64,000 nt of DNA, taken from contig CAYSUO010000002.1 in assembly GCA_964434325.1 (NCBI GenBank), positions 6,086-70,085 of the forward strand. Reading direction: 5' to 3'. Position 1 is the stretch's first letter. Each line of letters begins with the position of its first letter. The position numbers were made by a program, and so were the translations under genes. The notes below the pieces were generated by a model. That model was given only the letters and a program-made list of their open reading frames with translations. It searched no databases and was not told where the DNA came from. Shown here in pieces: positions 5,607 to 61,359 of this stretch. Origin of the DNA: an uncultured Ruminococcus sp. GTDB lineage: Bacteria; Bacillota; Clostridia; Oscillospirales; CAG-272.

Positions 5607-5657
5607 ATTAGCATACACACGCCGAAGGGCGCGCTAACAGTGTTAATCGAGGTGACT

Positions 5658-6872
5658 ATGATAAACGAAAAGATGAGGGAGCTGGGAGCCAAGCGCTCCG
5701 TGATACGCGAGCTTTTTGAATACGGGAAGCGGAGGCGAAGCGAGCTCGGCGACGACGCCGTTTTCGACTTTTCCCTCGGCAACCCGAGCGTTCCGCCTCC
5801 TCCCGAGGTCAATGAAGGGCTCGGGGAGCTTTTGGCGGAGGAAGCTGCGGCGGACGTTCATGCCTATACCTCGGCACAGGGAGACCGCGAGGTGCGGCGC
5901 GCCATTGCGGACTACGTGCGGCGAACGGAGGGGGCGGAAGCCGACGCGGAGCTCATATATCTCACGGCGGGGACGGCGGCGGCGCTGACCGCGACTCTGA
6001 CGGCGCTCGTTATGCCGAACGAGGAAGTCATCGTTCCGACGCCATACTTCCCTGAATACCGCGTTTTCATAGAGAGGACGGGCGCCACCGTTCGCGAGGT
6101 GCCCTGCCGTGAGCCCGACTTTTCCCTCGACGTTCCCGCCATTATGGAGAGCATTTGCGAAAAGACGGCGGCGATAATAATAAACTCACCGAACAACCCG
6201 ACGGGCGCGGTCTACTCGGAGGAAAACGTTGCCGCGCTGGCGGCGGCGCTCAAACGCCGCGAGCGGGAGCTGGGCAAAACCATTTACTTGATTGCGGACG
6301 AGCCCTACCGCGAGCTGGTCTACGACGGGGTGAAGGTGCCCTATCTTCCGAACTACTACGACGACGCGGTGGTTTGCTACTCTTTCAGCAAATCGCTTTC
6401 GATACCAGGAGAGCGGATAGGTTACGCCCTCGTTTCTCCGAAAATGCGCGACGCGACCGCCGTTTATCAGGCGTTAGCGGGGGCGGGGCGCGCGCTCGGC
6501 TTCGTTTGTGCGCCGAGCCTATTTCAGCGCTTACTTCCGAAGTGCCTCGGGAAGGTTGCCGACCTCGCGGTTTACGAAGAGAATATGCGGCTACTATATG
6601 ACGGGCTGACGGCACTCGGCTACGAGGCGGTGAAACCCGCGGGGGCTTTCTATCTTTTCGTGAAGGCGCTCGAAGCGGACGCGACCGCCTTTTCCGAGAG
6701 GGCGAAGAGGCGGGGGCTTTTGCTCGTCCCGAGCGATGATTTTGGAATCGCGGGCTACGTTCGCATTGCCTTTTGCGTCAAAGGGGAAATGATAACGCGG
6801 GCAATGCCCGCATTTGCCGAACTTGCCGCCGAATACGAGGCGGAAAGCGGCGCGAAACGGAGAAAGAAATGA
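5658..6872 (+). CDS. Class I/II PLP-dependent aminotransferase (probable aromatic/aspartate aminotransferase)
   Basis: ORF track 5595..6872. PLP-lysine box SFSKSLSIPGERIGY and NSPNNPTG. Start at ATG 5658 behind a GAGGTGA SD. Stop overlaps the pheA start (ATGA). Confidence 0.85.
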   Translation: MINEKMRELGAKRSVIRELFEYGKRRRSELGDDAVFDFSLGNPSVPPPPEVNEGLGELLAEEAAADVHAYTSAQGDREVRRAIADYVRRTEGAEADAELIYLTAGTAAALTATLTALVMPNEEVIVPTPYFPEYRVFIERTGATVREVPCREPDFSLDVPAIMESICEKTAAIIINSPNNPTGAVYSEENVAALAAALKRRERELGKTIYLIADEPYRELVYDGVKVPYLPNYYDDAVVCYSFSKSLSIPGERIGYALVSPKMRDATAVYQALAGAGRALGFVCAPSLFQRLLPKCLGKVADLAVYEENMRLLYDGLTALGYEAVKPAGAFYLFVKALEADATAFSERAKRRGLLLVPSDDFGIAGYVRIAFCVKGEMITRAMPAFAELAAEYEAESGAKRRKK

Positions 6873-7960
6873 CACTACTTGACGAAGCGAGAGAGATGAT
6901 AAACGAGACCGACGAGGAGATGGCGCGGCTCTTTGAAAAGAGAATGCGAGCCGCCGAGCTCGTTGCGCGCTACAAGAAGGAGCACGGCTTGCCGATATTC
7001 GACGGTGAGCGCGAGGCGGCGCTCCTACGAAGGAACTCCGACTATATCGGCGACCCCGCGTTGAAGGAATACTACGTCGGCTTTATTCAGGAGACGATGA
7101 ACGTTTCAAAGCGCTATCAGGAACGGCTCAACGAGGGAATGCGGATAGCCTACTGCGGGACGGAGGGCGCTTTTGCGCACATTGCGGCGTGCAAGCTTTT
7201 CCCGAGCGCGAAGAAGCTCCCTTTTTCCGACTTTCTCCCCGCCTACGAGGCGGTGGCGAAGGGGGAATGCGACGCCGCCGTGCTTCCCATTGAAAACAGC
7301 TACAACGGCGAGGTGGGACAGGTCACAGACCTTATGTTTTCGGGAGGACTATACGTCAACGCGGTGACGGAGCTCGCCGTTTCCCACGATTTGCTCGCGC
7401 TCCCCGAGGCGGAGCTCGGCGACGTTCGCGAGGTGCTGAGCCACCCGCAAGCGCTCGGGCAATGCGCGGACTACCTGCGCCGAGCGGGGCTTCGCGGCAT
7501 AGAGTACGCGAACACGGCGCTCGCGGCGCGGCACGTCAGGGAGAGCGGCGACAAGGCGCTCGCCGCCATTGCGAGCGAGGAGGCGGCGAAGATATTCGGC
7601 TTAAAGGTCTTGGCGCGAAACATCAACGCGAGCAGGAGCAACACGACGCGCTTCGCGGTCTTTTCGAGAGCTGAGAGCAAGCACAAAACGAAGGAGATGG
7701 GCGTTCACACGATACTCGTCTTTACCGTGCGCAACGAGGCGGGTGCTTTGGCGCGCGCCATCGACGTTATCGGAAAGCACGGCTTCAATATGCGGACGCT
7801 ACGAAGCCGACCCATGAAGGAACTTCTTTGGCAGTACTACTTCTACGTGGAGGCGGAGGGGAACGTTGACTCCCCCGAGGGGGCGGCAATGATGAAGGAG
7901 CTCGCCGAATGCTGCGACAGGCTAAAAGCCGTTGGCACCTACGTGAAGCCGCTACAATGA
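6869..7960 (+). CDS. pheA: Bifunctional chorismate mutase / prephenate dehydratase (P-protein)
   Basis: ORF track 6773..7960. From ATG 6869 it reads MTLLDEAREMINETDEEMARLFEKR (type II chorismate mutase). It also has a PDT domain (RIAYCGTEGAFAH, LPIENSYNGEV) and a C-terminal ACT domain (TILVFTVRNEAGALARAIDVIG). Confidence 0.9.
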   Translation: MTLLDEAREMINETDEEMARLFEKRMRAAELVARYKKEHGLPIFDGEREAALLRRNSDYIGDPALKEYYVGFIQETMNVSKRYQERLNEGMRIAYCGTEGAFAHIAACKLFPSAKKLPFSDFLPAYEAVAKGECDAAVLPIENSYNGEVGQVTDLMFSGGLYVNAVTELAVSHDLLALPEAELGDVREVLSHPQALGQCADYLRRAGLRGIEYANTALAARHVRESGDKALAAIASEEAAKIFGLKVLARNINASRSNTTRFAVFSRAESKHKTKEMGVHTILVFTVRNEAGALARAIDVIGKHGFNMRTLRSRPMKELLWQYYFYVEAEGNVDSPEGAAMMKELAECCDRLKAVGTYVKPLQ

Positions 7961-11581: not shown

Positions 11582-12027
11582 AGATATATGTGATAAACGG
11601 CCCCAATCTCAATATGCTGGGAATACGCGAGCCCGAGATATACGGAGCGGACGGCTACGGAGCGCTGGTTGAAAAATGCCGCCGCCACGCGGCGGAGCTC
11701 GGAATAGAGCCGATATTTTTTCAATCGAACCACGAGGGAGCGCTCGTTGACAAGATACAGGAGGCGTACTTTGAGGGGGCGGCGGGTATCGTTATTAACC
11801 CAGGGGCGTACACGCACACGAGCGTCGCCCTGCTTGACGCGGTGAAGGCGACGCGCCTACCCACGGTGGAGGTGCATATATCGAAAGTCGAAGAACGCGA
11901 GTCTTTCAGGCAGATAAGCTACGTGCGCTACGCCGCCCTGAAAACGATAACGGGGCGCGGGCTTGACGGCTACCTTGACGCGCTCGACTTTTTGAAGGAA
12001 TACGTTGACGGCGGCGCGAAAGCTTGA
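11578..12027 (+). CDS. aroQ: Type II 3-dehydroquinate dehydratase
   Basis: ORF track. MKIYVINGPNLNMLGIREPEIYG, NPGAYTHTSVAL and EVHISKVEERESFR. ATGA overlap with the upstream gene. Confidence 0.9.
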   Translation: MKIYVINGPNLNMLGIREPEIYGADGYGALVEKCRRHAAELGIEPIFFQSNHEGALVDKIQEAYFEGAAGIVINPGAYTHTSVALLDAVKATRLPTVEVHISKVEERESFRQISYVRYAALKTITGRGLDGYLDALDFLKEYVDGGAKA

Positions 12028-12089
12028 TGAGAAGCGCCGAGCCGCGGCTTTTCACACGCGGCTTCGGCGACGCAAGGAAAGGAGCTCAA

Positions 12090-13304
12090 ATGAGAGTTGC
12101 GATAAAAAAAGGCGTGGCGCGCGGGGAGATATGCGCGCCGCCCTCGAAAAGCATGGCGCACAGGCTACTCATCTCGGCGGCGCTCGCCGAGGGGGAAAGC
12201 ACGGTGCGCGATATACCCTTTTGCGACGACGTTTTGGCGACGCTCGACTGCCTGAACGCCTTAGGGATTGCGACCGAGATAAGGGGCGCGGACGTGACGG
12301 TGCACGGACGGCGCTTATCGGCGATCGACACGAGCGCGATGCTCGAATGCCGCGAGAGCGGAAGCACGCTTCGCTTTATGATACCGCTCTTACTTTTGAG
12401 CGGCAAGCGAGCCACCCTGCACGGTGCGCCCTCACTTATGAGCCGCCCGATGAGCGTTTACGAGGAGCTGGCCAAGGAGCAGGGCTTTGAATACGCGGCG
12501 AAGGGCGACACGATAAGCCTTAAAGGACGGCTCACGGGGGGCGACTTGAAGCTTCGCGGCAATGTCAGCAGTCAATTCATCAGCGGCTTGCTTTTCGCTC
12601 TGCCCTTGGCGGACGAGGACAGCACGCTGCACATAACGACGGCGGTGGAAAGCCGCTCCTACATCGACCTGACGCTTTCCGCATTGAGGACGTTCGGCGT
12701 TCTTGCGGAGTGGAGCGACGATTACACCTTGAAAATACGGGGACGGCAGAGCTACACACCGAGCGACGTTCGCGTGGAGGGCGATTATTCGGGGGCCGCA
12801 TTTCCTGCGGCGCTGGCGCTTTTCGGCGGCGACGTTCGCATTGCGGGGCTCAAAGAGAACAGCATACAGGGGGACCGCGCCTACGCGAGGCATTTTGAGG
12901 CGCTTATGCGCGGCATTCCGACGATACATGTTGGAGACTGCCCCGACCTCGGGCCCGTGCTTTTCGCCGTTGCGGCGGCGAAGAACGGTGGAATCTTCGA
13001 CGGGACGAGGCGCTTGAAGATAAAGGAGAGCGACCGTGCGGCGGCGATGGCGGTGGAGCTGATGAAATTCGGAGCCTCGGTCAGCGTTTACGAGGACAGC
13101 GTGGTCATATATCCGAAGAGCTTCCACGCACCGAGGGAGCCGCTTTGTGGGCACAACGACCACAGAATAGTTATGGCGCTCTCGGTGCTCCTCACCCTGA
13201 CGGGGGGAGAGCTGACGGGGGCGGAAGCCGTGGCGAAGAGCTATCCCGCGTTTTTCGATGACCTCGAAGCCTTGGGAATAGAGCTTGCGCGATATGAGGA
13301 ATAG
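12090..13304 (+). CDS. aroA: 3-phosphoshikimate 1-carboxyvinyltransferase (EPSP synthase)
   Basis: ORF track 12024..13304. PPSKSMAHRLLISAALAEGES, LKIKESDR and HNDHRIVMAL. Start moved to ATG 12090 behind an AAAGGAG SD. Confidence 0.9.
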   Translation: MRVAIKKGVARGEICAPPSKSMAHRLLISAALAEGESTVRDIPFCDDVLATLDCLNALGIATEIRGADVTVHGRRLSAIDTSAMLECRESGSTLRFMIPLLLLSGKRATLHGAPSLMSRPMSVYEELAKEQGFEYAAKGDTISLKGRLTGGDLKLRGNVSSQFISGLLFALPLADEDSTLHITTAVESRSYIDLTLSALRTFGVLAEWSDDYTLKIRGRQSYTPSDVRVEGDYSGAAFPAALALFGGDVRIAGLKENSIQGDRAYARHFEALMRGIPTIHVGDCPDLGPVLFAVAAAKNGGIFDGTRRLKIKESDRAAAMAVELMKFGASVSVYEDSVVIYPKSFHAPREPLCGHNDHRIVMALSVLLTLTGGELTGAEAVAKSYPAFFDDLEALGIELARYEE

Positions 13305-13363
13305 GCGCGCGAAGCGGCGACAGCATATCAAATACATAGCCTTTGCGGCGGAACGGAAGCAAT

Positions 13364-14245
13364 ATGAAGCTTGACAAAAACACAAAGATACTGATAGTGG
13401 GGCTCGGGGTGATAGGCGGCGGCTATGCGGCGGCGCTGACCGCGGCGGGCTACACCGTCAAATGCATTACGAAGGAGCAAAAGGACGTTGACTACGCGAC
13501 GGAGCGGAATATGATAAGCTACGGAACGACGGAGATAGAGCCCGCGCTCATCGCGGAGGCGGAGCTGATAATCTTCGCGCTCTACCCCGCGACGTTCATC
13601 GAATGGATAGAGAAAAACCAAAAATACTTTTCTCGTGGGACGATAATAACCGACGTTACGGGCGTTAAGGGTCACGTTGTTGACAAGATACAGAGCATTT
13701 TGCGCCGTGACGTTGAATTTATCGCGGCGCACCCGATGGCGGGACGCGAGCAGAGCGGAGTTGAATTTTCAAGCCCCGAGGTCTTTCACGGGGCGAACTA
13801 CATAGTTACGCCGACGGAGAAGAACACGAGGGAGGCGACGGAGCTCTGCCGCGAGCTCGGGCGCGTTCTCGGCTTTGCGAGGATAACGGAGCTGACGACG
13901 GAGGAGCACGACAGGATGATAGCCTTCCTCTCACAGCTGACACACTGCATAGCCGTTTCGCTTATGAACTGCAACACCGCGCCCTCCTTGGAGAGCTACA
14001 CGGGAGACTCTTTTCGCGATCTGACGAGGATAGCGAAGATAAACGACCGAATGTGGAGCGAGCTCTTTCTTATGAACAGGGGCGCGCTTCTCGACGAGAT
14101 GAACGCTTTTATAAAAGAATTTTGCCTCTTTCGCGATATGCTCATTGCGGGCGACTGCGAAGGAATGCGAGAAAAAATGCGCTCGGCGACGGAGCGAAGA
14201 AAGCTCTTCGACAAGCCAACGAAAAGAAAGGATGAAACATTATGA
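13364..14245 (+). CDS. tyrA: Prephenate dehydrogenase
   Basis: ORF track 13343..14245. Rossmann motif ILIVGLGVIGGGYAAAL, plus AAHPMAGREQSG. Start at ATG 13364 after GGAACGGAAG. Confidence 0.85.
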   Translation: MKLDKNTKILIVGLGVIGGGYAAALTAAGYTVKCITKEQKDVDYATERNMISYGTTEIEPALIAEAELIIFALYPATFIEWIEKNQKYFSRGTIITDVTGVKGHVVDKIQSILRRDVEFIAAHPMAGREQSGVEFSSPEVFHGANYIVTPTEKNTREATELCRELGRVLGFARITELTTEEHDRMIAFLSQLTHCIAVSLMNCNTAPSLESYTGDSFRDLTRIAKINDRMWSELFLMNRGALLDEMNAFIKEFCLFRDMLIAGDCEGMREKMRSATERRKLFDKPTKRKDETL

Positions 14246-16590: not shown

Positions 16591-16761
16591 AACGCGCGAA
16601 TCTATCTATGCAACGAAAAGCTACGTGGCCTTCACGCAGAGATATTTCGGAGAGTTTTCGCCTCTCCGCGAAAATATACGCGATAAATTTTAAGATAATG
16701 AATAATGAATAAAAGTGTGTCTCGTTAAAAATTCAATAAAGCGAATTTTTAATGGACACAC

Positions 16762-16997
16762 GAAGAGGCTGACGGATTTAGAGCAGAAGTCGACGGCTGA
16801 CGAGCGATAGGCGTACAAAGGTACGTCGAGCGAGGAAACGTCGATAAAACGAAAAACATAATAAAAAGATAAAACCGTAGGTTTTAACCTTGATTTTTCC
16901 GAAAAACACACGGTAGAAGCAAAGCTCTTTCTTTATTTCTTTATTTCTTTATTTCTTCCGTTTTTCGTTTGTTTCTGTTTAAATGCGACAGCCTCTT
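16762..16997. mobile_element. MITE-like non-coding repeat element (module B core + module A terminator hairpin) with about 19-bp terminal inverted repeats
   Basis: The left end gaagaggctgacggattta (16762-16780) matches the reverse complement of the right end taaatgcgacagcctcttt at 16 of 19 positions. The interior matches the repeat units at 60781-61359 and 49005-49127. It contains a (CTTTATTT)x3 microsatellite at 16931-16954. Confidence 0.5.
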
Positions 16998-17031
16998 TTC
17001 CTTCGGCTTTGGCTAAATGCGGCGCGAGCTA

Positions 17032-17586
17032 TCAAAGGATCAGCTCTTCCTCCTCATCCTCGTCAAACTCGTCTTCAACGGGGACCCAAGCTCTGCCGAA
17101 TTTGGTCTCCTTAAAGAGGGCGGCGAGCCCCGTTATTTGCTTCAAGCGAAGTATCTCGTCTTTATCCATGCCGAGATGCTTCGATATCCACGCGTCGCTC
17201 CTGCCGAGCTCGTGGAGCTCCTTGACGATGTTGCTCATCAGGTCAACGTCGTGCGAGCCGCGGGCACGGTTATGCCGTATCGTGCTCGCCATACGCTGGT
17301 CAATCGACTTATCGATGACGGAAACGGGGAGCTTGCCGCCCTCGCGCTCGTATATATCGTGATAATCGAGCATAACGCGATAGCGATGGAAGCCGTCCAC
17401 GATGACGTAGGTATCGTTTTCCTTCACGTGGTAGCAAACGATGGGCATCGTGTACCCGTCCTCCTTGATGCTGTCGTAGAGGAGCTTCATCTCGGGCGGT
17501 GCTACCGCGTTGGGGTTATAGGTATTGGGGACTATCTTTTCAATTGGCACGGCGATAACGCCGTACACGGGACTTTTAAAAGCCAT
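17032..17586 (-). CDS. ParB/Srx-like nuclease-domain protein, IbrB-like
   Basis: ORF track. ParB/Srx core IVDGFHRYRV, TIRHNRARGSH, an HTH-like SDAWISKHLGMDKDEILRLKQ and an acidic tail DEFDEDEEEELIL. Paired with the IbrA-like gene 46 nt upstream. Confidence 0.75.
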   Translation of the reverse strand: MAFKSPVYGVIAVPIEKIVPNTYNPNAVAPPEMKLLYDSIKEDGYTMPIVCYHVKENDTYVIVDGFHRYRVMLDYHDIYEREGGKLPVSVIDKSIDQRMASTIRHNRARGSHDVDLMSNIVKELHELGRSDAWISKHLGMDKDEILRLKQITGLAALFKETKFGRAWVPVEDEFDEDEEEELIL

Positions 17587-17617
17587 AGCTACTCCATTCC
17601 GCCGCCGAGGCGGCTCT
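17587..17617 (-). promoter_or_regulatory. Stem-loop + SD cassette upstream of the IbrB-like gene
   Basis: Minus strand reads GCCGC-CUCG-GCGGC-GGAATGGAG-TAGCT-ATG. Nearly identical to the cassette upstream of rpiB. Confidence 0.45.
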
Positions 17618-17632
17618 TATTTTTAACGGGGG

Positions 17633-18961
17633 TCATTCCTCGCCGCCCACCGCGGCATACTTCGCCTTCAAAAGGTCGAGCCTTCTATACTGCTCTCGCG
17701 AAAGCCCGAAGCCCATAAAGCGGCATATATGGTCGTTTTTCAGGATACAGAAGCACATACGCTTCCAGCTGGGAACGTCCTTCGAGGTCTTTATATCGTC
17801 GGTATGGTCTGGGATAGGGCCGTCAAACACCACGCGCTTATTTTTCATTATCGTGTAATTGGAGACGCCGTTCGTGCGCACCCTATACCCGCGGTCAACG
17901 AGCTCCTTTATCGTTTCATCGTCGAGCCCGCCACCTATCTTATGCCAAAATTCTATCGAGGTCCTGAATTTCTTTATATAGTTATTCCGAAGCTTCGTTG
18001 GAAGCGTATCGAGCAAGAACTTGGTGTACGACTCCCAGGTGTGCCCCTCGGGCAAGGAGAGTGAGCGATAGCCGAGCGCCTTCGTCTTACCGTAGATGGC
18101 GCCGAAGTTGACCCCGCGGACGCGCCCGAGCAGCTTAACCCAAGTCTTGGGGTCAATGATCCGATACATATTTAGGCTTTCCTTGGCATAATCGTTGAAC
18201 GGGGAGGCGACGCGCATCTGATCGGGCGTGAGCCCCGCCTTATAATACAAGTCGTAGAGATAATTATACTCGTAGTTAAAGGTGTAGATGGCGTGCCACA
18301 CGTCGGAAGTGCTCCAATCGTAGAGCGGGGACGCCGCCCAACAGTTTTTGAACTGCTGAGTTATCCAGCACTCGCCCTTGTAGCCGTACTTCTTATTGAC
18401 GAAGCCGCTGTAACGCTGCATGGACTCATCGGCGCGCATACCGAGCAGCGTTACCGTTTTGCCCTCGCCGTGCGATATACGGTACCAGCGCCCGAACTGC
18501 TTGGCAAGATCCTCCTGGTGCATACGATAGTGGTAGGTGGACATCGGGTTATTCGCCAAATTGACGACGTAGGGGTGCTCGGGCATGGGGCGCACCCAAA
18601 CGTCCTTCTTCTTATCGTCCCACGCGTACCAAAACATTTCGTAGCTACTGAGGGCGGTGCGCACCGCCATGGGGAGGCAGAGCCAATAGAGCTCGATATT
18701 TTCGTCGCCTTCCAGACGCTTGAAGGTACGCTCGACAAAATCCGTCGTCATACTATACTGCGCCTCAAAGTCCTGATGAAAGACGCATATATGCCTATCG
18801 GGGCAATGCCTTTTTCTGTAATCGAGGACGAGCTCCAAAAGAAGCCCGCTATCCTTACCGCCCGAAAACGAAACTATAACGTTGTCAAATTCCTCAAAGA
18901 TGAATTTTATGCGCTCGATGGCGGCATCGTAAACGTTTTTCTCTACGTATTCTCTTCTCAT
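17633..18961 (-). CDS. PAPS-reductase/PP-loop ATP-pyrophosphatase family protein with long C-terminal extension, IbrA-like
   Basis: ORF track. PP-loop VIVSFSGGKDSGLLLE and LGMRADES, then a roughly 230-aa C-terminal region (WSTSDVWHAIY.., NYIKKFRTSIEFWHK, CFCILKNDHICRFMGF) as in IbrA/DUF3440-type proteins. Confidence 0.75.
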   Translation of the reverse strand: MRREYVEKNVYDAAIERIKFIFEEFDNVIVSFSGGKDSGLLLELVLDYRKRHCPDRHICVFHQDFEAQYSMTTDFVERTFKRLEGDENIELYWLCLPMAVRTALSSYEMFWYAWDDKKKDVWVRPMPEHPYVVNLANNPMSTYHYRMHQEDLAKQFGRWYRISHGEGKTVTLLGMRADESMQRYSGFVNKKYGYKGECWITQQFKNCWAASPLYDWSTSDVWHAIYTFNYEYNYLYDLYYKAGLTPDQMRVASPFNDYAKESLNMYRIIDPKTWVKLLGRVRGVNFGAIYGKTKALGYRSLSLPEGHTWESYTKFLLDTLPTKLRNNYIKKFRTSIEFWHKIGGGLDDETIKELVDRGYRVRTNGVSNYTIMKNKRVVFDGPIPDHTDDIKTSKDVPSWKRMCFCILKNDHICRFMGFGLSREQYRRLDLLKAKYAAVGGEE

Positions 18962-18997
18962 TTTTTATCACCGTTAGCGTTAAATTACGTTATGAAT

Positions 18998-19026
18998 ATA
19001 TTAGCATATTTTAAAATTATTGTCAA
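18998..19026 (-). promoter_or_regulatory. Predicted promoter of the IbrA/IbrB-like pair
   Basis: Minus strand reads TTGACA-17 nt-TAATAT. A tandem ATCGACAA ATCGACAA lies just upstream (19047-19064). Confidence 0.55.
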
Positions 19027-19073
19027 TAATAAACTAAACATTTTGTCGATTTGTCGATTTTGCCGCATAGCTA

Positions 19074-48939: not shown

Positions 48940-49170
48940 GCTGTCTCATCGCATTAACGAATTACGACTGCTGTGTATAGAGGGCGTCACATTAAAAATT
49001 CAATATTAAAACAGGGAAAATCGTAGGTTTTAACCTTGATTTTCCCGAAAAAAACACGGTAGAAGCAGAGATTCTTCTTTACTTCTACCGTTTTTCGTTT
49101 TTTTCTGCCTAAATGCGACAGTCTCTTCGCTATAATTCTATCTCAAAAATTCAATTTGCGACAGCCTCTT
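48940..49170. repeat. Repeat-family locus: module A (inverted repeat, terminator hairpin, TAAATGCGACAG end) flanked by an 11-bp direct repeat
   Basis: GGGAAAATC..GATTTTCCC lies at 49014-49047. The terminator ACGGTAGAAG..CTTCTACCGT+T-run lies at 49056-49105. TAAATGCGACAGTCTCTT lies at 49110-49127, with a second TGCGACAGCCTCTT at 49157-49170. AAAAATTCAAT occurs at both 48994-49004 and 49145-49155. Confidence 0.6.
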
Positions 49171-60780: not shown

Positions 60781-61359
60781 GAGAAACGTAGGTTTGAGCT
60801 TGCTTTTCACAAAAATACGGTAGAAGCAAAGGAAGTCTTTGCTTCTACCGCTTTTCGTTTGTTTCTGCCTAAATCGTCAGCCTCGGGAGGCTTGGCGAAT
60901 TTAGTGCAAAAATCGACGGCTGACGAGCGACAGACGTACAAAAGCACGTCAAGCGCGGAAACGTCGATAAAACGGAAAGCAAAATAAAAAGATAGGTTTT
61001 GAGCTTGCTTTCCACAAAAAATACGGTAGAAGCAAAGGAAGTCTTTGCTTCTACCGCTTTTCGTTTGTTTACGCCCAAATCGTCAGCCTCGGGAGGCTTG
61101 GCGAATTTAGTGCAGAAATCGACGGCTGACGAGCGACAGACGTACAAGGGTACGTCAAGCGCGGAAACATCGATAAAACGGAAACCGTGGTTTTCGTTTG
61201 TTTACGCCTAAATCGTCAGCCTCGGGAGGGTGGGCGAATTTAGTGCAGAAATCGACGGTTGACGAGCGACAGACGTACAGGGGTACGTCGAGCGCGGAAA
61301 CGTCGATAAAACGAAGACCGTGGTTTTCGTTTGTTTCTGCCTAAATGCGACAGTCTCTT
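60781..61359. repeat. Head-to-tail stack of 3.5 copies of the MITE-like repeat family (module A terminators + module B structured cores)
   Basis: The unit boundaries TAAATCGTCAGCCTC|GGGAGGCTTGGCGAATTTA lie at 60870, 61077 and 61209, giving periods of 207, 132 and 133 bp. The array ends with TAAATGCGACAGTCTCTT (61342-61359), which overlaps the stop codon of the permease gene. Terminator hairpins lie at 60817-60864 and 61023-61070. Confidence 0.85.

Follow-up and report, generated by a model that had tools for sequence, protein, structure and literature searches.

Among the closest described relatives of the gene pair analyzed here are those of Escherichia coli, where work by Sandt, Hopper and Hill in 2002 (J Bacteriol 184:3640) reportedly found that the proteins IbrA and IbrB activate prophage eib genes, the one phenotype reported for the family. 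A paralogous chromosomal pair, ybdN-ybdM, is present in 5,421 of 5,426 complete E. coli genomes. The ybdNM operon is repressed by the adjacent LysR regulator YbdO/CitR, with ybdN at +5.5 log2 in a ybdO mutant (PMC9068703). In the same delta-ybdO background the cysteine regulon (cysDNC, cysJI, cysAWU) is up by 2-2.8 log2 (PMC9068703, Table 1), a rise that could reflect a drain by YbdNM on sulfur, cysteine or 3′-phosphoadenosine 5′-phosphosulfate (PAPS), or an effect of YbdO unrelated to the pair. YbdM was found '29-fold' up with a resistance plasmid and called 'completely uncharacterized', and overexpressing it lowers the growth rate by about 10% (PMC8764527). In Listeria monocytogenes, lmo1309/lmo1310 are listed among core-gene loci (PMC7020466). 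An earlier annotation made from the letters of this DNA (the sequence-only reading) had called the biochemical activity of the IbrAB type unknown, and our survey of the literature likewise returned no functional study; comparative-genomics papers on Dnd, bacteriophage exclusion (BREX), ParB-CTPase-fold and polyvalent proteins do not mention the pair.

Here we analyze an IbrA/IbrB-type pair in a 64,000-nucleotide stretch of contig CAYSUO010000002.1 from an uncultured Ruminococcus sp. (hereafter the window, meaning the whole stretch). Two minus-strand genes encode an IbrA-like protein of 442 residues and, starting 46 nucleotides past its end in the same orientation, an IbrB-like protein of 184 residues; both open reading frames (ORFs) lie exactly where they had been predicted (Table 1). 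Profile hidden Markov model searches, homology to E. coli YbdN and YbdM, and Foldseek all agree on this identity, and we assign the locus to the IbrA/IbrB (YbdN/YbdM) family with very high confidence. We propose, with a probability of roughly 40% for the reading as a whole, that IbrA and IbrB form a two-subunit, adenylation-dependent enzyme that modifies nucleic acid, probably DNA. The window copy is ordinary, and its value lies in a family-level puzzle: a known family without an assigned biochemical function that is core in E. coli K-12 and Listeria, populates gut Clostridia, and turns up in over 600 viral contigs and some 750 plasmids.

Folds and conserved residues of the two proteins

IbrA joins an N-terminal PP-loop domain of the PAPS-reductase fold (PF01507 PAPS_reduct, 46 bits, E 9e-12) to a C-terminal DUF3440 domain (PF11922, 277.5 bits against a cutoff of 25, E 6e-83) that covers profile positions 1-180 of 182. 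The protein aligns over its full length with E. coli YbdN (residues 9-427, 29% identity, BLASTP E 5e-60), matches phrog_2302 (E 1e-102), and is accompanied by the adjacent, co-oriented IbrB-like gene that marks the IbrA/YbdN family. The motifs SFSGGKDS and LGMRADES of IbrA, the motifs DGFHRY and RHNRARG of IbrB, and the poly-acidic IbrB C-terminal tail (VEDEFDEDEEEELIL), all named in the sequence-only reading, are present in the translations.

We scored residue conservation over 78 diverse IbrA family members. The PP-loop residues S33, G35, K36, D37 and S38 are conserved in at least 94% of these, and the GxRxxES motif in more than 90%. Conservation of at least 90% also extends to D64, E66, P97, W114, W122, R124, G174, R176, E179, S180 and R183, continues through D215, W216, D220, W222, Y232, N233, Y236 and R250, and in the C-terminal part includes W274, R280, G283, W309 and D410. 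C95 is the sole broadly conserved cysteine (87%, replaced by Ala or Gln in some members), while C403, C405 and C413 are conserved in 51%, 24% and 49%. The long cysteine-containing C-terminal extension had been described as a trait of IbrA/DUF3440 proteins; at these frequencies it is not one, and the C-terminal cysteine cluster was dropped as a family-wide metal or iron-sulfur (Fe-S) site. Residues 349-382 form an insert that is missing from YbdN and from more than 50% of the family. Read from sequence, the residue profile fits an ATP alpha-beta pyrophosphatase or adenylyl-transferase with an aromatic or phosphate-rich, nucleotide-like substrate, and speaks against chemistry based on Fe-S clusters or cysteine persulfides as in DndC, CysH or TtuA.

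An AlphaFold2 model of IbrA, built on close (70-75%) homologues with limited alignment depth, has a mean predicted local distance difference test score (pLDDT) of 65, with a confident PP-loop core and a poor DUF3440 region. Foldseek matched the N-terminal half to FMN adenylyltransferase/FAD synthase, CysD, CysH, TilS, NcsA, LarE and NAD synthetase and returned no structural match for DUF3440; a sequence search of the Protein Data Bank found no IbrA relative, and Rosetta-stone fusions among long family members were uninformative. A stand-alone 89-residue ORF upstream of ibrA in some phages, for example at L219:533-802, encodes the final ~45 residues of DUF3440, its W-K-R-x-C...N-D motif region. 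The domain therefore consists of two or more modules that can occur apart, and in several family members only its profile positions 1-100 are matched.

IbrB matches the ParB N-terminal domain (PF02195) at 26.3 bits, exactly the cutoff of that model. Its AlphaFold model (pLDDT 74, tail residues 157-184 disordered) is best matched in Foldseek by C-terminally truncated Noc, ParB and KorB (E 1e-6, 145-160 columns spanning the N-domain and a following helix-turn-helix, HTH), and over the N-domain only by sulfiredoxin and the serine kinase SerK. The protein also matches phrog_498, a group of ParB-N-terminal fusions to DNA methyltransferases (E 3e-14). In alignments to Noc and Spo0J, the DGFHR motif of IbrB stands where ParB carries GERRxR; DGxHR or GCHR at this box II position is typical of the ATP-using ParB-superfamily members Srx and DndB. 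ParB-fold proteins bind various nucleoside triphosphates (NTPs) as switches, with an NTP specificity that is not predictable from sequence (10.1101/2025.10.10.680097).

Conservation of IbrB is high across phyla. The window protein is 80-90% identical to homologues within Clostridia, one of them named 'IbrB-like domain-containing protein' (PGAP also names YbdM 'IbrB-like'), 51% identical to E. coli YbdM, and 66% identical to a phage protein annotated IbrB. Identity is 59-79% to viral contigs, 66-70% to Streptococcus and Lactobacillus phages, 60% to Mycobacterium phage Gaia, 59% to Flavobacterium phages and 47-49% to enterobacterial virulence plasmids. IbrA is less conserved, at 41-45% to those phages and 29% to YbdN. 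Across ten IbrB sequences from E. coli, Listeria, phage and Clostridia, the blocks YNPN, DGFHR, TIRHNRARGxH and GMDxDExLRLKQxxGLxxLF are invariant.

Pairing, mobile partners and proposed function

IbrA homologues form at least 6,900 clusters at 90% identity and are abundant in human and animal gut Clostridia; the best 120 of these clusters are 71-75% identical to the window protein over the full length and come from metagenome-assembled genomes of Oscillospiraceae, Ruminococcaceae and Lachnospiraceae. A lookup of the exact window IbrA sequence returned no record. A 50%-identity representative library holds 367 IbrA-family clusters at E<=1e-30 and 2,010 at E<=1e-3, and a scan of species-representative genomes gave 194 loci, none above 75% identity, which include Phascolarctobacterium (Negativicutes). 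IbrB follows IbrA in 87 of 89 cellular loci, the other two being cut by contig ends, and in most loci the two genes overlap or lie within ~14 nucleotides of each other. Clustering of neighbors at 80 loci revealed no third conserved partner and no flanking gene common to different genus-level groups, and the 64-kb window holds no paralogue of the pair.

Mobile elements keep the same pairing. Phage records include 224 with IbrA and 231 with IbrB, from the same host genera, plasmid records 725 and 779, and IMG/VR more than 600 matches; of 80 viral loci with IbrB, 79 also encode IbrA, and the pair is carried by lytic phages of Flavobacterium, Mycobacterium and Streptococcus. On Klebsiella IncF virulence plasmids it lies between repB and the aerobactin genes (L178). 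A compact SNF2 helicase of ~410 residues (PF00176 and PF00271, phrog_62) is encoded directly upstream of ibrA, often overlapping it, in 45 of the 80 viral loci, with small conserved proteins (phrog_27058 or phrog_5809) preceding the SNF2 gene. The SNF2-ibrA-ibrB order recurs in Streptococcus phage CHPC877 and on the Listeria monocytogenes chromosome, where an S-adenosylmethionine (SAM) methyltransferase gene follows. In 15 of the 80 viral loci an ectoine-synthase-like cupin of 129 residues (PF06339, E 1.4e-43) sits between ibrA and ibrB together with small ORFs, one of which is the stand-alone C-terminal DUF3440 motif; an EctC-like protein would not be expected among the nucleic-acid genes of a phage, and its presence may point to dehydration or cyclization. 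The clade of the window and E. coli ybdNM consist of the bare pair, with neither helicase nor cupin.

We propose that IbrA and IbrB act as one obligate enzyme, a prediction that draws on their adjacency in cellular and viral loci, their matching phage and plasmid counts, and their overlapping or closely spaced genes. IbrB, with a ParB fold, an Srx/DndB-like 'DGxHR' NTP pocket and an HTH, would bind nucleic acid in a nucleotide-dependent manner and position or activate IbrA. IbrA would use its PP-loop ATP pyrophosphatase domain to activate a target group as an acyl- or enol-adenylate or by adenylyl transfer, in the manner of TilS, GMP synthetase, DndC or FMN adenylyltransferase; conservation of the PP-loop, D64/E66 and GxRxxES above 90% and the fold match to adenylyl-transfer and PP-loop enzymes point to IbrA as the catalytic subunit. 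The adenylated group would then be substituted to leave a covalent mark. Its target is most likely DNA, as suggested by the match of IbrB to ParB, Noc and KorB, by phrog_498, by the SNF2 partner and by weak similarity of IbrA to DndC and BrxP. Because only C95 is broadly conserved and the C-terminal cysteines reach 24-51%, the chemistry is probably not a cysteine- or Fe-S-based sulfur transfer. Phage and plasmid versions add a helicase and probably perform the same chemistry on their own DNA.

This proposal can be given a more specific form, which we put forward as speculative and hold to be doubtful. The pair would be a self-sufficient two-subunit enzyme that installs an undescribed nucleic-acid modification through an adenylated intermediate without sulfur, for example by amination or substitution at a base carbonyl or a DNA phosphate, and IbrB would serve as its NTP-gated loader. 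Core copies on chromosomes, namely E. coli ybdNM and those of Listeria and gut Clostridia, would share this chemistry with hundreds of phages and plasmids, which would add SNF2 or EctC-like steps and so mark their own DNA. Three features commend the family as an attractive and tractable target in the search for an undescribed nucleic-acid modification or an unfamiliar role of the ParB fold: the very high conservation of IbrB across phyla, the strictness with which a PP-loop enzyme accompanies it, and the addition of helicases and cupins in phages.

Several observations weigh against a DNA-modifying enzyme. Neighbor clustering found no cognate nuclease or reader gene with the chromosomal pairs, so the purpose of a DNA mark is hard to see. 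Across residues 250-297 the pLDDT of DUF3440 is 30-45, at which no substrate pocket or fold can be assigned. The IbrB HTH is conserved across phyla at 51-79%, far above what is usual for a sequence-specific DNA binder, which suits DNA no better than it suits a universal target, for example tRNA, rRNA or a nucleotide; the structural neighbors of IbrA, too, include the tRNA enzymes TilS and NcsA.

Alternative functions and the residency of the locus

One alternative casts the pair as a transcription regulator or anti-silencer, with IbrB a ParB/KorB/VirB-like NTP-gated DNA clamp that switches genes on, IbrA accessory or nucleotide-supplying, and no covalent modification. The E. coli name, 'co-activator of prophage gene expression', points this way, as do the ParB N-domain and HTH architecture that IbrB shares with KorB and Noc and the action of ParB-fold proteins as NTP switches (10.1101/2025.10.10.680097). 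The IbrAB-like pair of E. coli plasmid NZ_CP010123.1 (L179) lies ~4.4 kb from a gene for a YadA-like trimeric autotransporter, an Eib-type adhesin (loci 5652-7504 and 11913-14216), and echoes the genetic link of IbrAB with Eib (YadA-like) proteins. Yet the more than 90% conservation of the PP-loop and GxRxxES of IbrA argues for an essential enzymatic step, the presence of the pair in lytic Flavobacterium, Mycobacterium and Streptococcus phages makes host-style regulation less plausible, and IbrB ends in a disordered tail where clamps need a ParB C-terminal dimerization domain. No conserved operator-like motif emerged from 80 non-redundant regions upstream of ibrA across the clade, in which only promoter-like k-mers were enriched. 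The tandem octamer ATCGACAA x2 noted upstream of the -35 box in the window is real but not conserved: it occurs in 1 of these 80 regions, a conspecific contig (L170) carries GCGGCAAAA x2 at the same site, and it is probably not an operator. We regard a purely regulatory role as unlikely.

Modification of tRNA or rRNA is a further alternative. Here IbrA would adenylate a base in a universal RNA, as TilS, TtcA and NcsA do, IbrB would be an RNA- or NTP-binding specificity subunit, and phages would use the pair to tune or protect translation. Beyond the TilS and NcsA fold matches and weak NCBIfam matches to TilS and TtcA, the very high cross-phylum conservation of IbrB suits a substrate that is universal, E. 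coli and Listeria both carry the pair as a core-like locus, and an RNA pseudouridine synthase gene is divergently adjacent in the window. That adjacency is found in 0 of 89 related loci, however, and the HTH-ParB architecture and the SNF2 double-stranded-DNA translocase partner of the mobile versions point to DNA. Moreover, ybdNM is repressed and poorly expressed in standard conditions, unlike housekeeping tRNA modification genes (PMC9068703). On balance an RNA target appears improbable.

The sequence-only reading had favored an acquired nucleic-acid modification, defense or regulatory module. In its strongest form this would be a phosphorothioation-like island in which IbrA is a DndC/BrxP analogue and IbrB a DndB analogue, with sulfur possibly supplied through cysK. 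The same two folds do occur in Dnd systems, homologues are common on phages and plasmids, and PADLOC-DB 2.0 gave partial weak matches of IbrA to DndC (33.6 bits) and BrxP (32 bits over 76 residues), although none for IbrB. The dedicated DndC model TIGR03183 scored 26.6 bits against a cutoff of 290.4, about a tenth of it, in a local match of 67 residues. No DndA/IscS, DndD, DndE, PglZ, BrxC or nuclease gene was found in the neighborhood, and the conserved cysteines expected for a Dnd-type Fe-S cluster or sulfur relay are missing from IbrA family-wide, C95 standing at 87% and all others at 51% or less. CysH models fared no better (TIGR00434, 16 bits against 165; NF002537, 16.8 against 154), and neither the conserved C-terminal catalytic cysteine (ECGLH) nor an Fe-S motif is present; CysD (19 bits against 195) and the TilS N-domain (19 against 94) gave short local matches. 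Membership in Dnd, BREX or CysH was rejected on these scores far below cutoff, the lack of partner genes and the single family-wide conserved cysteine. Neither PADLOC nor gene context lends support to a defense reading.

Composition and context also speak against recent acquisition. The pair had been described as an AT-richer islet, but its total GC (0.523 and 0.542) is only ~1-1.5 standard deviations below the window gene mean (0.575, standard deviation 0.035), and the flanking rlu and permease genes are equally low (0.511). GC at third codon positions (GC3) is 0.711 and 0.730 for the pair against 0.696 +/- 0.053 for 49 window genes, so the small GC deficit sits in codon positions 1 and 2 and reflects amino-acid composition rather than foreign codon usage. 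The window neighbors are shikimate-pathway genes (aroE/K, aroA, tyrA, DAHP synthase), cysK, an RluA-family pseudouridine synthase gene, an amino-acid ABC transporter and uvrA, with no mobile or defense genes and no adjacent regulator among them. Flanks are shared across species of a genus in five Roseburia/Eubacterium, four Lachnospira, eight Lachnoclostridium-like, seven Acetatifactor and three Phascolarctobacterium loci. CysK, Rlu and the other window neighbors occur in 0 of 89 related loci; the adjacency to cysK, once thought possibly meaningful, is confined to the species of the window and coincidental, and cysK was rejected as a functional partner. In a presence/absence test anchored on rlu, all 80 metagenomic relatives (49-72% identity) lacked not ibrAB alone but every other window neighbor as well, synteny being wholly lost at or below 72% identity. 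Pairwise IbrA identity within the clade is 69-100% (median 78%) and almost independent of taxonomy, with the Phascolarctobacterium protein 85% identical to a Lachnospiraceae copy; these flat identities across families are compatible with old horizontal transfer, and either extreme constraint or old between-family transfers, which identities do not separate, would explain them.

The repeat that had been likened to a miniature inverted-repeat transposable element and read as an island boundary is a real element with a terminal inverted repeat of 18 nucleotides (16763-16780 / 16980-16997) and an internal 8-nucleotide tandem (TTTCTTTA x3). Incomplete copies, 88-94% identical, recur at 49017-49127 and, three in tandem, within 60843-61359. 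It is not an island edge. The ~316 bp (~16716-17031) that contain it are missing from conspecific contigs L170, L174 and L175, which encode IbrB 100% and IbrA 99% identical to the window proteins and have an ibrB-cysK gap of ~128 nucleotides; the insertion is a later event specific to the strain of the window.

Translation signals at the locus are typical of the host. The hairpin GCCGCCTCGGCGGC (-11.4 kcal/mol) lies directly 5′ of the ibrB Shine-Dalgarno (SD) sequence and belongs to a cassette, GCCGC-loop-GCGGC-GGAA(T/C/G)GGAG-N5-7-ATG, whose hairpins of -10 to -15 kcal/mol precede at least six unrelated window genes, including cysK. This bears out the host-typical hairpin-SD cassette described earlier, with ~6-7 occurrences in the window, and the window has 35 GCCGC...GCGGC hairpins where a Markov model predicts 12.9, a ~2.7-fold excess. 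The cassette may act as an mRNA stabilizer, a processing site or a small mobile ribosome-binding-site element. Relatives mostly have only 8-14 nucleotides between ibrA and ibrB, against 46 in the window, so the cassette in this spacer is a lineage-specific addition and a sign of long residence, to which host-like codon composition also testifies.

The sequence-only reading had itself named ordinary composition and synteny in relatives as signs against an acquired module, and failure of profile searches as a sign against the IbrA/IbrB assignment. The profiles support the assignment, composition and synteny turn out largely ordinary, and with core status in E. coli and Listeria the idea of an acquired module falls away. 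The pair is an ordinary, long-resident chromosomal copy and not a recently acquired defense island; recent acquisition and Dnd/BREX membership are largely refuted, and a phosphorothioation-like defense function is very unlikely.

Sulfur assimilation, with IbrA a CysH-type PAPS/APS reductase or auxiliary metabolic gene working with cysK, can draw on the Pfam PAPS_reduct match, the neighboring cysK, the induction of the cys regulon in delta-ybdO E. coli with ybdNM derepressed (PMC9068703), and a virome study that counted DUF3440-bearing phage proteins as CysH (10.1101/2021.01.05.425418). Against it stand the CysH scores and absent catalytic motifs given above, a cysK adjacency seen only in the species of the window, and an intact SGGKDS PP-loop that indicates ATP pyrophosphatase or adenylyl-transfer chemistry; an obligate ParB-HTH partner and helicase partners would be senseless for sulfate reduction. 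Judged from these sequence features, the 'CysH' label of phage IbrA copies is probably wrong, and we consider this function highly improbable. Equally hard to credit is a toxin-antitoxin system in which the DUF3440 protein would be the toxin and its ParB-like partner the antitoxin, as TASmania labels Listeria lmo1309/lmo1310: the tightly coupled two-gene operon, found also on plasmids and phages, made it a candidate by guilt-by-association (PMC7020466), but that label rests on association only, both proteins show very strong purifying selection and vertical stability unlike typical toxin-antitoxin loci, IbrA has the active site of a metabolic enzyme, and YbdM overexpression costs ~10% of growth rate while deletions change fitness by 1-2% (PMC8764527).

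The operon has, as previously noted, its own promoter-like TTGACA-17-TAATAT with a TG-extended -10, which matches 10 of 12 positions and is the top-scoring site of the region; the core promoter is kept in conspecific contig L170, and many relatives carry their own extended -10 promoters upstream of ibrA. Rfam at gathering thresholds found no RNA family in the whole 64-kb window (no tRNA, rRNA, riboswitch or T-box), despite its amino-acid biosynthesis and cysK genes, so that no riboswitch or leader accounts for the upstream or downstream spacers. A 233-residue ORF at 17017-17718 (+) runs antisense across ibrB and is longer than it; the same shadow ORF appears in ~11 related loci and is most likely an artefact of high GC3 and a strongly conserved sense frame, not a gene. 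In one strain of another species that carries the pair, GmrSD-like (DUF262) and HEPN genes (L006:524-2285) replace the CHAP/integrase segment found ~6 kb upstream of ibrA in L004 and L005; this is a small variable defense islet near the pair and not linked to it.

Table 1. Coordinates of the ibrA-ibrB locus and its motifs in the window, and of partner genes in related loci (L numbers)
Feature	Position	Strand	Description
ibrA-like gene, 442 residues	17633..18961	(-)	PP-loop ATP pyrophosphatase domain (PAPS-reductase fold) and DUF3440
ibrB-like gene, 184 residues	17032..17586	(-)	ParB/Srx N-terminal NTP-binding domain, HTH and disordered acidic tail
PP-loop SFSGGKDS, residues 31-38	18848..18871	(-)	ATP alpha-beta pyrophosphatase signature, as read in the translation
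DUF3440 region, residues 243-425	17687..18235	(-)	Mostly helical; conserved Trp, Tyr and Arg abundant; no solved homologue
Clade-specific DUF3440 insert, residues 349-382	17816..17917	(-)	Gap in YbdN alignment and in family gap profile
ibrA-ibrB spacer with hairpin-SD cassette	17587..17632	(-)	Hairpin 17601-17614, GGAG 17592-17595
DGFHR motif of IbrB, residues 64-68	17383..17397	(-)	Position of ParB box II (GERRxR), by alignment to Noc and Spo0J
RHNRARG motif of IbrB, residues 104-110	17257..17277	(-)	Putative ParB box III, by position; helix 95-108 of model
Sigma-70/sigma-A type promoter of ibrA-ibrB operon	18998..19026	(-)	TTGACA, 17 nucleotides, TG-extended TAATAT; putative, from consensus alone
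Tandem octamer ATCGACAA x2	19043..19058	(-)	Upstream of -35 box; strain-specific
Dispersed intergenic repeat, strain-specific insertion of ~316 bp	~16716..17031	no strand	Between ibrB and cysK; outside the ibrAB unit
Hairpin-SD cassettes in the window	17614(-), 16590(-), 23728(-), 38280(-), 54296(+), 57030(+)
SNF2 helicase genes, examples	L200:4482-5726; L172:3797-5032; L180:6803-8008
EctC-like cupin loci	L260:4116-4505; also L204, L206, L212, L215, L216, L242, L247, L252-L254

Comparison with known systems

The IbrB protein shares with the ParB, Noc and KorB CTPase clamps an N-terminal NTP-binding domain and the HTH that follows it. It differs from partition ParB in carrying DGFHR for GERRxR, an acidic disordered tail for the C-terminal dimerization domain, and no ParA gene nearby, and its score against the partition model TIGR00180 (parB_part) is 23.6 bits where the cutoff is 58.45. 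With DndC/DndB and with BrxP of type 4 BREX the pair has in common the combination of a PP-loop enzyme of PAPS-reductase fold and a ParB-superfamily protein with a DGxHR-type motif, and local similarity around GxRxxES. In contrast to these systems, IbrA lacks the cysteine dyad and Fe-S cluster of DndC and the Cys-rich region of BrxP, which is ferredoxin-like (PMC12839542), whereas DUF3440 is unique to the IbrA family.

Closer relatives share both proteins. The SNF2-IbrA-IbrB modules of phages and Listeria (CHPC877 gp27-29; the lmo1309-1311 region) have a core 41-45% (IbrA) and 55-70% (IbrB) identical to the window pair in the same order and with tight coupling, but add the SNF2 helicase and sometimes a SAM methyltransferase or EctC-like cupin, where the window clade has the bare pair. 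The name-giving IbrA and IbrB of E. coli ECOR-9 are compared here through phage proteins annotated IbrA and IbrB, which are 41% and 66% identical to the window proteins; a genomic island carries ECOR-9 ibrAB, whose phenotype is regulatory, whereas the window copy lies off-island with no evident eib-like target.

The pair also resembles E. coli K-12 YbdN/YbdM, which has the same gene order, full-length homology and a chromosomal location, and likewise has no third partner. YbdN differs in lacking the 34-residue insert (349-382) and two of the three C-terminal cysteines, and YbdM in having a ~45-residue N-terminal extension and no acidic tail. Regulation differs as well: ybdNM is under an adjacent LysR-type repressor, while no regulator gene adjoins the window operon, which is preceded by a strong consensus promoter. 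E. coli ybdNM offers a ready genetic system for the family.

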